Positions 3,709 to 4,362 of a DNA stretch of 64,000 bases are shown here, in pieces. Source of the stretch: Saccostrea cucullata. Lineage: Eukaryota. Position 1 is the stretch's first letter. The number at the start of each line of letters is the position of its first letter. The notes under the pieces were generated by a model. It saw only the letters and a program-made list of their open reading frames with translations. It had not been told where the DNA came from and ran no database searches. The position numbers and the translations under genes are program-made. The stretch spans positions 558,001-622,000 of the forward strand of contig NW_026938995.1 in the NCBI RefSeq assembly GCF_032062105.1, given 5' to 3'.

Positions 3709-4362
3709 ATGGCTATGTTTCCTAACGCTTCCCGAGGCTATATGCCGTTTGTTACTGGACAACATCAGAAAAAGGCGATTGCTTTGGCTAAACAAAAACA
3801 AGCCAAGTCCGGAAAAAATGACAAGAAGCGAAAGATGAAGACCTACCTGGTGACCTTAAAGGACAGAAGTGGTGCTACTTATACGTACACCATAAGAACT
3901 GATGGGACTACTTCTAAGCCTACTTTGTGCGAATCTAAATTGGGAGCAACTGCCTCGCTTCCCAATCTCGGACTTACAAGTCCTATCCAAAGAATGTTAT
4001 ATTCCAGAGACGATCTTGATGTAAAAGATGAGAAGAAAGGGGGAATCTTCAGCTCGGTCATCAAATTCTTTAAACAGAAAACAGGAAAGAGCAAGAGTGG
4101 AAAATCCAAGAGAAAGCCCAAGACTCTGGAACAAAGAAAACGCCAGAGAACCATCTCTGCGATGTCCAACTTAGATCCGATTCAGGAGAGACCTGATGAG
4201 GAGGAATATGAGGACAGTGACGAGGAAGACAATGACTCTTACACTCACAGCGAATCTGACAGTTCCAGTGTCAGCGAATCTGAACCTAACTGTGAAAGTG
4301 TCAGTATATGTGAGTCGGACTTGAAGTCTGTCGAAAAGATCAACATCCAGATTAAATCTTGA
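3709..4362 (+). CDS. Uncharacterised intronless 217-aa protein (basic N-terminal/central part, acidic Ser-rich tail), apparently nested antisense in a NOC2L intron
   Basis: Longest ORF in the window. ATG in good context (tcaacATGG), TGA at 4360-4362, and GC/codon composition clearly different from the flanking AT-rich DNA. Strong upstream splice acceptor (ttgctttttcttgcag ending 3426). No family recognised. Confidence 0.75.
   Translation: MAMFPNASRGYMPFVTGQHQKKAIALAKQKQAKSGKNDKKRKMKTYLVTLKDRSGATYTYTIRTDGTTSKPTLCESKLGATASLPNLGLTSPIQRMLYSRDDLDVKDEKKGGIFSSVIKFFKQKTGKSKSGKSKRKPKTLEQRKRQRTISAMSNLDPIQERPDEEEYEDSDEEDNDSYTHSESDSSSVSESEPNCESVSICESDLKSVEKINIQIKS

Follow-up and report, generated by a model that had tools for sequence, protein, structure and literature searches.

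A mollusc-wide, intron-free gene lying antisense within a NOC2L intron of Saccostrea cucullata encodes a predicted PP2A-B56 docking protein

What kind of gene is an uninterrupted 217-codon frame that resembles no familiar protein and lies on the strand opposite NOC2L? The question is raised by a 64,000-nt stretch of a Saccostrea cucullata contig (here called the window), in which an earlier note made from the letters alone had pointed out the frame (Table 1), referred to below as the guest. The clean frame stands up as the longest ATG-initiated ORF anywhere in the window, and none of 60 block-shuffled windows reached its length (maximum 149 aa). A genome search returned a single match to the guest sequence in its own genome. 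An assembled contig of ~1.9 kb containing no splice joint was present in all four of the sequencing runs examined, of which one is recorded as RNA-Seq, two are guessed to be RNA and one is unlabelled, and such contigs give neither strand nor level. Their extents were 3463-5414 (X1), 3499-5318 (X19), 3610-5316 (X13) and, in pieces, 3382-5318 (X2); between window positions 1,500 and 8,000, the contigs of the four runs cover ~3,460-5,410 and almost nothing outside. The contigs are ~95-99% identical to the window, indicating a close relative or another stock. Comparison of the CDS with this close relative gave 13 synonymous and two non-synonymous changes among the 15 listed differences (pN/pS 0.04, p ~7e-8), and among the indels listed the only one in the CDS is 3 nt long, those in the UTRs being mostly of 1, 2 or 8 nt. 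The guest is a real, expressed, intron-free gene under purifying selection.

Its lack of introns and low complexity might suggest a chance ORF, a transposon remnant or a processed pseudogene. This explanation retains practically no probability and is already refuted by the conservation data: 108 homologues exist, the gene tree tracks mollusc groups, transcript contigs are present and pN/pS is far below neutrality. A retrocopy is further opposed by the single genomic copy, by the lack of any spliced parent gene among the matches found and by the same pN/pS, which shows no neutral decay. The alleles and predicted forms vary in places. At window position 3917 (codon 70), the window allele encodes K70, where the otherwise identical protein P0002 and the run contigs have Met, and at codon 161, R161 replaces the family Ser in both the window allele and P0002. 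Two shorter forms are predicted for Magallana gigas in UniRef, one of 185 aa without the helix and KSKRK (P0008) and one of 120 aa without the entire C-half (P0021); no joints matching either form were seen in the four runs examined.

The nested position proposed in the earlier note depended on NOC2L continuing to the left of the window, and this is where its missing exons were found. The RefSeq NOC2L protein labelled Saccostrea cucullata (P0130) aligned in 17 collinear pieces, and a gap is spanned at residue 522/523. As had been noticed, the gene runs on the reverse strand and is incomplete within the window, its last exon edge there lying at 32092 with a GAG/GTGAGT donor at 32,091; the next exon starts from contig position 541,599 (window ~-16,400) and is preceded by the acceptor TTTCATTGCAG at contig 541,600. 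The Noc2 Pfam model matched three exons at window 32,074-34,375 and three at contig 540,585-541,608, left of the window, and the remaining NOC2L exons lie 16-20 kb left of the window. The intron so delimited is 48,492 bp long, of phase 0 and free of N, with the 48-kb splice deduced from canonical splice sites together with the mapped RefSeq protein, and not from reads. On these alignments, the entire guest transcription unit is placed within one NOC2L intron, on the opposite strand. Nothing that the earlier note had named as speaking against its proposal was encountered, as the guest is conserved and expressed, belongs to no known family, and NOC2L does not end to the right of 4362.

Other genes were sought in the rest of the intron. 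Among the 68 stop-to-stop frames of at least 62 aa in its window part, the 62 scanned gave no Pfam match over the cut-off, the other six overlapping the guest CDS, and small exons could escape such a scan; an Rfam search of window positions 1-40,000 gave no match. Upstream of NOC2L, at window ~38,350-39,100, lies a duplicated non-coding element with TGACGTCA cores, a related copy of which is found at ~33,300-33,850 in a NOC2L intron and which is probably a small mobile element. Elsewhere on the contig, a 605-aa single-frame ORF on the minus strand (504,662-506,476; L007/L006) looks, by inspection, like a TRIM protein with B-box, coiled-coil and NHL repeats, and long tandem-repeat arrays at ~473,600-476,700 and 512,500-525,700 create spurious Cys/His/Thr-rich open frames.

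In order to establish the reach of the family, homologues were collected by sequence and by profile. A single-sequence search identified 99 among 253 candidates, and a profile built from 96 sequences identified 108 among 4,157, a count restricted to lengths of 101-468 and followed by a sharp drop in score after the family. All 22 species-labelled members of the 108 are molluscs, and the remaining 86 carry no species label. The family groups comprise oysters, Pinctada, Mytilus, limpets, caenogastropods, heterobranchs and Octopus, thus bivalves, gastropods and cephalopods, and two unlabelled members on long branches (P0075 and P0102) could be non-molluscan. A phmmer search of 1.84 billion representatives gave 14 matches, consisting of 12 family members or fragments and two spurious repeat proteins. 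P0104 and P0106, long repeat proteins that match the hairpin only and look like bacterial adhesin repeats, were dismissed as relatives. When 33 sequences were placed in a quick tree, the bivalves, the cephalopods and the subgroups of gastropods came apart as vertical descent would predict, and duplicates showed up in Nucella/Babylonia and in Candidula. These three genera keep two paralogues, and in the neogastropods the flank of the motif has diverged in the second copy (LGTIHE). The guest CDS likewise lacks introns on two ~10-kb contigs carrying homologues (L018 and L019).

The family matched nothing recognisable in the databases searched. In Pfam, no family exceeded the cut-off for the guest (best match 18 bits, cut-off 29.4), and of the 25 families listed across the 96 members none occurred in more than four of them. 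Ferlin_C fell below the Pfam cut-off and was dismissed, as were phage tail-tube matches in the PDB (E 0.5), where a profile search gave nothing significant (E at least 0.51). A Foldseek search of the guest model against the PDB found no fold match at E of 0.001 or less (E at least 1.1), and the ESM Atlas gave no usable match to the whole protein or to residues 38-92. Orthologues have already been predicted under the labels 'uncharacterized' or 'hypothetical' (LOC125673815, LOC144626284, K1QX33, LOTGIDRAFT_228790 and C0Q70_04064). Literature searches by these identifiers and by motif strings, covering mainly open texts without their supplements, found no paper, and among the matches listed, those to 'MFPNA' were unrelated WT1 epitopes. 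Searches on NOC2L with nested gene and mollusc, and on mollusc-specific, intronless and oyster, yielded nothing on the guest gene among the matches listed. On these searches, the family is undescribed and apparently restricted to molluscs. The earlier note had recognised no family, and none was matched in Pfam, PDB or the Atlas; homologues were found in three mollusc classes and in no named non-mollusc. Its term 'orphan' does not hold at the species level, given some 108 homologues, and is apt only above the phylum level.

Table 1. Positions of the guest, its protein modules, its upstream elements and its host in the window.
Feature	Position	Strand	Remarks
Host NOC2L intron, window part	1..32091	-	48,492 bp in all, continuing to contig 541,600
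15-bp element, NFI-like half-site fused to double TEAD/MCAT-like site	2918..2932	.	Identical upstream of L018
13-bp element, M-box/E-box-like core	3198..3210	.	Identical upstream of L018
Perfect NFI-type palindrome TTGGC-N5-GCCAA	3244..3258	.	Sole copy in 204 kb; L018 copy at -660
Unspliced transcript contig, 5' UTR ~250 nt, 3' UTR ~1 kb	3463..5414	+ (strand inferred from ORF)	Assembled contigs
Second double TEAD/MCAT-like site near transcript start	3475..3484	+	One of two in 204 kb
Guest CDS, intronless, 217 aa, mollusc-wide uncharacterised family	3709..4362	+	ORF, homologues, substitution pattern, single genomic match
N-terminal motif M-(F/Y)-P-N-A-x-x-G-Y-M-P-(F/Y)-V	3709..3753	+	M12, P13 invariant 96/96
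Predicted beta-hairpin (44-64) and short bridge 72-73	3838..3930	+	AlphaFold; G55, P71, L73 invariant; sole confidently folded part
S-(L/M)-P-(N/D) motif, candidate phospho/14-3-3 site	3955..3969	+	91/96
Basic amphipathic helix, predicted	4042..4083	+	AlphaFold helix 113-125
Basic clusters KSKRK and KRQR, second with RxRxxS site at S150	4102..4158	+	KSKR, KRxRxxS 96/96
LxxIxE motif L155-D-P-I158-Q-E160 with acidic flank, predicted PP2A-B56 docking	4171..4200	+	96/96
D-x-(D/E)-S-Y-x-H motif, candidate dephosphorylation site	4228..4248	+	S177 96/96, Y178 95/96, H180 93/96
NOC2L N-terminal exons mapped	32092..37574	-	Residues 12-522 of RefSeq protein P0130

Across the alignment of 96 sequences, conservation is confined to short blocks (Table 1), and the protein is predicted to be mostly disordered, with a mean AlphaFold pLDDT of 56.6, only about 30 residues folded with confidence, and low confidence outside the hairpin and helix. 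The hairpin-like segment described in the earlier note corresponds to predicted strands 44-51 and 57-64 (block pLDDT 83-91), alongside which lies a conserved PxLC block; a homodimer model of residues 36-92 (score 0.02) spoke neither for nor against a dimer. The amphipathic GGIFSSVIKFFK helix was likewise well called, being predicted as helical, basic and strongly amphipathic, with a mean hydrophobic moment of 0.69 (94 of 96 sequences have the pattern). The acidic tail is also present as described, 21 Asp or Glu falling in residues 150-217 and 16 Lys or Arg in residues 108-149, and across the family the tail varies in both length and sequence. The S-(L/M)-P-(N/D) block is a candidate site of the phospho/14-3-3 class. 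In the RxRxxS element, which we take to be an Akt/SGK/RSK-type site, positions -5, -3 and 0 are invariant in all 96 sequences, and S153 would be a follow-on site of CK1 type. The most conserved element of all, KRQRTIS-AMSN-LDPIQE, had been missed in the earlier note.

This element ends in an LxxIxE motif, the short sequence by which proteins dock to PP2A-B56. Its strict form occurs in every one of the 96 aligned homologues and in seven of eight further matches outside the alignment, the eighth being a 105-aa fragment, and arises by chance in 2.6% of cases in a shuffled family member. Positions 1, 4 and 6 are invariant (L, I and E), and position 5 varies (Q in 77, E in 12, H in 3, others; n = 96). 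The flanks are also constrained, with Asp or Glu at position 2 (96/96), Ser at position 7 (88/96), Pro at position 8 (92/96) and Asp or Glu at position 9 (70/96), giving the family consensus L-D-P-I-x-E-S-P-(E/D). KRxR stands 7-9 residues upstream of the motif in all 96, and in the guest the basic patch with RxRxxS lies seven residues before it. The second paralogues of Nucella and Babylonia, which lie outside the alignment, read LGTIHESP, so that N, D, P and Q have changed and L, I and E are kept. Residues 141-180 around the motif have a pLDDT of ~49-57 and no secondary structure in the AlphaFold model, and the motif is predicted to lie in an accessible disordered region. The Saccostrea genome contains two B56 loci, recovered as separate exons.

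These features agree with published B56 ligands. In PMC10970375, the motif, defined as [LMFI]xx[ILV]xE, prefers L1 and I4 and has an invariant E6, and acidic or phosphorylated residues at positions 2, 7, 8 and 9 strengthen B56 binding. PMC7108865 describes a basic patch up to ~15 residues upstream of LxxIxE and an engineered KIF4A LE...PE variant with a KD of 0.10 uM, a layout that the guest consensus has naturally. Like the basic-patch interactors named there (KIF4A, RepoMan/CDCA2, NHS and AIM1), the guest combines a basic cluster at most 15 residues upstream, acidic flanks and predicted disorder; however, those are large multi-domain human proteins, to which the guest, a free-standing array of motifs of ~210 aa, shows no detected homology. 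On this sequence evidence, the guest is probably a PP2A-B56 docking adaptor tuned by phosphorylation. Against this, LxxIxE is short, and the conservation of S153, N154, D156 and P157 goes beyond what docking to B56 would by itself require, so that the block may have a different reader. Position 7 is Arg in the window protein (S161R), which has lost the phospho-enhancing site there, and S150 lies only five residues from L155, closer than the 12-130-residue spacings given in PMC10970375.

If docking occurs as known motif biology suggests, L155, I158 and E160 would enter the B56 pocket and KRQR would meet the B56 acidic groove. Binding would be tuned by a basophilic kinase at S150 (RxRxxS) and then by phosphorylation of S153 and, in the majority of species, of S161. 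The docked phosphatase might act on S83 or S177 of the guest protein itself, the DSYxH serine lying 10-21 residues past the motif Glu in 130 sequences, or instead on a partner that the N-terminal motif, the hairpin or the amphipathic helix would hold. A phylum-restricted gene would then plug into a universal phosphatase by short motifs alone, and an aquaculture species would provide a natural B56 regulator. The docking proposal offers a testable function for a gene that spans bivalves, gastropods and cephalopods and for which these searches turned up neither family nor paper.

The same grip could serve inhibition. By analogy with IER3, an abundant small protein might fill the substrate pocket as a decoy and prolong kinase signalling, a role we regard as improbable for the guest. 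The near-optimal motif with its basic patch and a small, intronless gene encoding no catalytic domain would suit it, and there are precedents in IER3, reported to act in this way (PMC4599215), and in the 4x LxxIxE construct that serves as a B56 inhibitor (PMC10970375). However, four further conserved modules, namely the N-terminal motif, the hairpin, SLP and the helix, suggest other partners and exceed what a mere decoy would require. The immediate-early PP2A modulators IER3, which acts on B56 (PMC4599215), and IER2 and IER5, which act on B55, resemble the guest as small proteins with compact genes acting on PP2A, but share no sequence similarity with it, and the named guest members are all molluscan. 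Pfam matched no IER domain in the guest, nor did the 25 families listed across the 96 members include one.

The remaining modules could instead form the core of the protein. A membrane or cortical scaffold switched by kinases and 14-3-3, in which the helix and RxRxxS are central and LxxIxE incidental, would account for the invariant RxRxxS (96/96), for S(L/M)P in 91 of 96 sequences and for the basic, strongly amphipathic helix. Against it, L, I and E are kept in paralogues whose neighbouring residues have changed, and we judge it very unlikely.

The Lys/Arg tracts were read in the earlier note as nuclear or nucleolar localisation signals; the tracts are indeed present, but import is not their only option, as they may serve B56 docking also or instead. 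A classical bipartite NLS consists of two basic clusters ~10-12 residues apart and directs importin-dependent import. The KSKR...KRxR span of the family, 16 aa in 89 of 96 sequences with a short fixed linker, may fit a bipartite NLS equally well. The guest might on this basis be a nuclear or nucleolar protein related to chromatin or ribosomes, with a bipartite NLS/NoLS, an acidic tail binding histones or ribosomal proteins and a nested position that couples it to NOC2L. The charge distribution given above points in this direction, as does the resemblance of B56 basic patches to NLSs noted in PMC7108865. However, the variability of the acidic tail argues against such a role, which leaves the invariant L, I and E unexplained and appears unlikely; the nesting bears on it from both sides, as described below. 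It is compatible with B56 docking as a localisation step, and the nuclear, decoy and scaffold roles are not mutually exclusive.

The upstream region of the guest was compared with that of L018, whose protein is 39% identical to the guest and groups with bivalves in the tree. The 1.2 kb upstream of the two genes have ten GC-rich 10-mers in common against a control mean of 1.07; none of 167 tiles of the 204-kb region reached ten, and 13 other tiles of L018 and L019 had 0-2 in common. These controls are mostly non-promoter DNA, one homologue was compared and the motif list was picked after inspection. We take the upstream sites to be of NFI, TEAD/MCAT and M-box type. The 15-bp element has four matches in the 1.17-Gb genome, and GAATGGAATG has just two copies in 204 kb, both at the guest gene. 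A CCAAT box is also common to the two upstream regions, and in both the M-box-like site lies 44-46 bp upstream of the TTGGC-N5-GCCAA palindrome, with the order of the two longest identities differing. The sequence identities support an independent, conserved promoter, more firmly than they support any named factor, and with its NFI-, TEAD- and E-box-like sites it would drive the guest independently of NOC2L. Literature searches for a TEAD-NFI composite found nothing relevant. A TEAD/NFI-driven, mollusc-invented feedback regulator of PP2A-B56, the B56 counterpart of the B55 inhibitors ENSA/ARPP19 and IER5, is a doubtful extension of the docking proposal, in which a near-optimal basic-patch and LxxIxE grip would feed the protein's own D-S-Y-x-H serine to the catalytic site; such a regulator would have stayed in the NOC2L intron ever since molluscs radiated.

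Other elements were seen near the gene. A 17-bp near-identical direct repeat, AATGGAA(C/T)GTTCCAGAT, at 3172-3191 and 3477-3495 flanks the transcript start and is heat-shock-element-like or kB-like; heat induction is not claimed, as the region upstream of L018 lacks the heat-shock-element-like repeats (3176 and 3480). Perfect TTGGC-N5-GCCAA sites also occur ~300 bp downstream of the stop codon in the two homologous contigs (L018:4928 and L019:1295), with none there in the window.

Whether the nesting matters can be approached through its age. Nesting in other species was judged from locus tags and accessions, not DNA, using the best 120 of 585 NOC2L matches. In Patella caerulea, the N-half of NOC2L (SNE40_013965, ending in ...VLPFLLE), the guest (013964) and the C-half (013963, beginning with IFEQVDF) follow one another; by these gene models the guest lies in the same NOC2L intron in Patella, with NOC2L split at the same junction. 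Guest and NOC2L identifiers are adjacent or nearly so in Lottia (228789/228790), Mytilus edulis (CAG2256617/618 and XP_071147627/630) and Mytilus coruscus (CAC5378224/222, same 233-kb contig), and are close in Ostrea edulis (XP_056022251-3 vs 265/275). In Crassostrea virginica and Pinctada, the two have just the length of their contig in common, and the tags are not adjacent in Pinctada. Seven of nine aligned short NOC2L models end at residue 522-524 (Lottia, Patella, two Mytilus, Pinctada, Mya and Ruditapes), with no stop there in those of Tegillarca and Lingula. The nested guest would be the reason that many mollusc annotations wrongly break NOC2L at one junction. No NOC2L exon was found within 10 kb on L018 and L019, whose span is too short for a large intron.

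In contrast, the guest and full-length NOC2L occupy separate contigs in Elysia crispata, E. chlorotica, E. marginata and Candidula, and their accession numbers differ by over 15,000 in both Biomphalaria glabrata and B. pfeifferi. By these identifiers, the six heterobranch species examined have lost the nesting but retain the motifs of the protein. The same-intron check suggested in the earlier note thus gives the expected arrangement in Patella and adjacency in Lottia and Mytilus, and fails in these six species. The nesting appears to be old, kept in bivalves and limpets, but not obligate. Its retention there would favor the nuclear role with its coupling to NOC2L; however, its loss in heterobranchs that keep the motifs weakens a nucleolar or NOC2L functional link. 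For the docking adaptor that we prefer, the NOC2L intron would be a long-kept address and not a functional need. The split between bivalves and gastropods dates to the Cambrian. An arrangement kept since that split and lost in one lineage would let the importance of nesting be tested directly.

Nested antiparallel pairs of long standing are rare, and PMC2330155 found only three clusters of overlapping genes that Ecdysozoa and vertebrates have in common. The Synapsin-Timp pair described there likewise has an antisense gene kept very long in a host intron, but involves other genes, whereas the guest is intronless and phylum-restricted and its nesting is lost in the heterobranchs examined. In Mytilus coruscus, accession order separates the NOC2L N-half from the guest by one more predicted gene (CAC5378223). 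In Patella vulgata, RefSeq NOC2L 'isoform X2' (330 aa) contains the C-half only with a new first exon, and may be an artefact or a real intron-internal transcript, possibly head-to-head with the guest.
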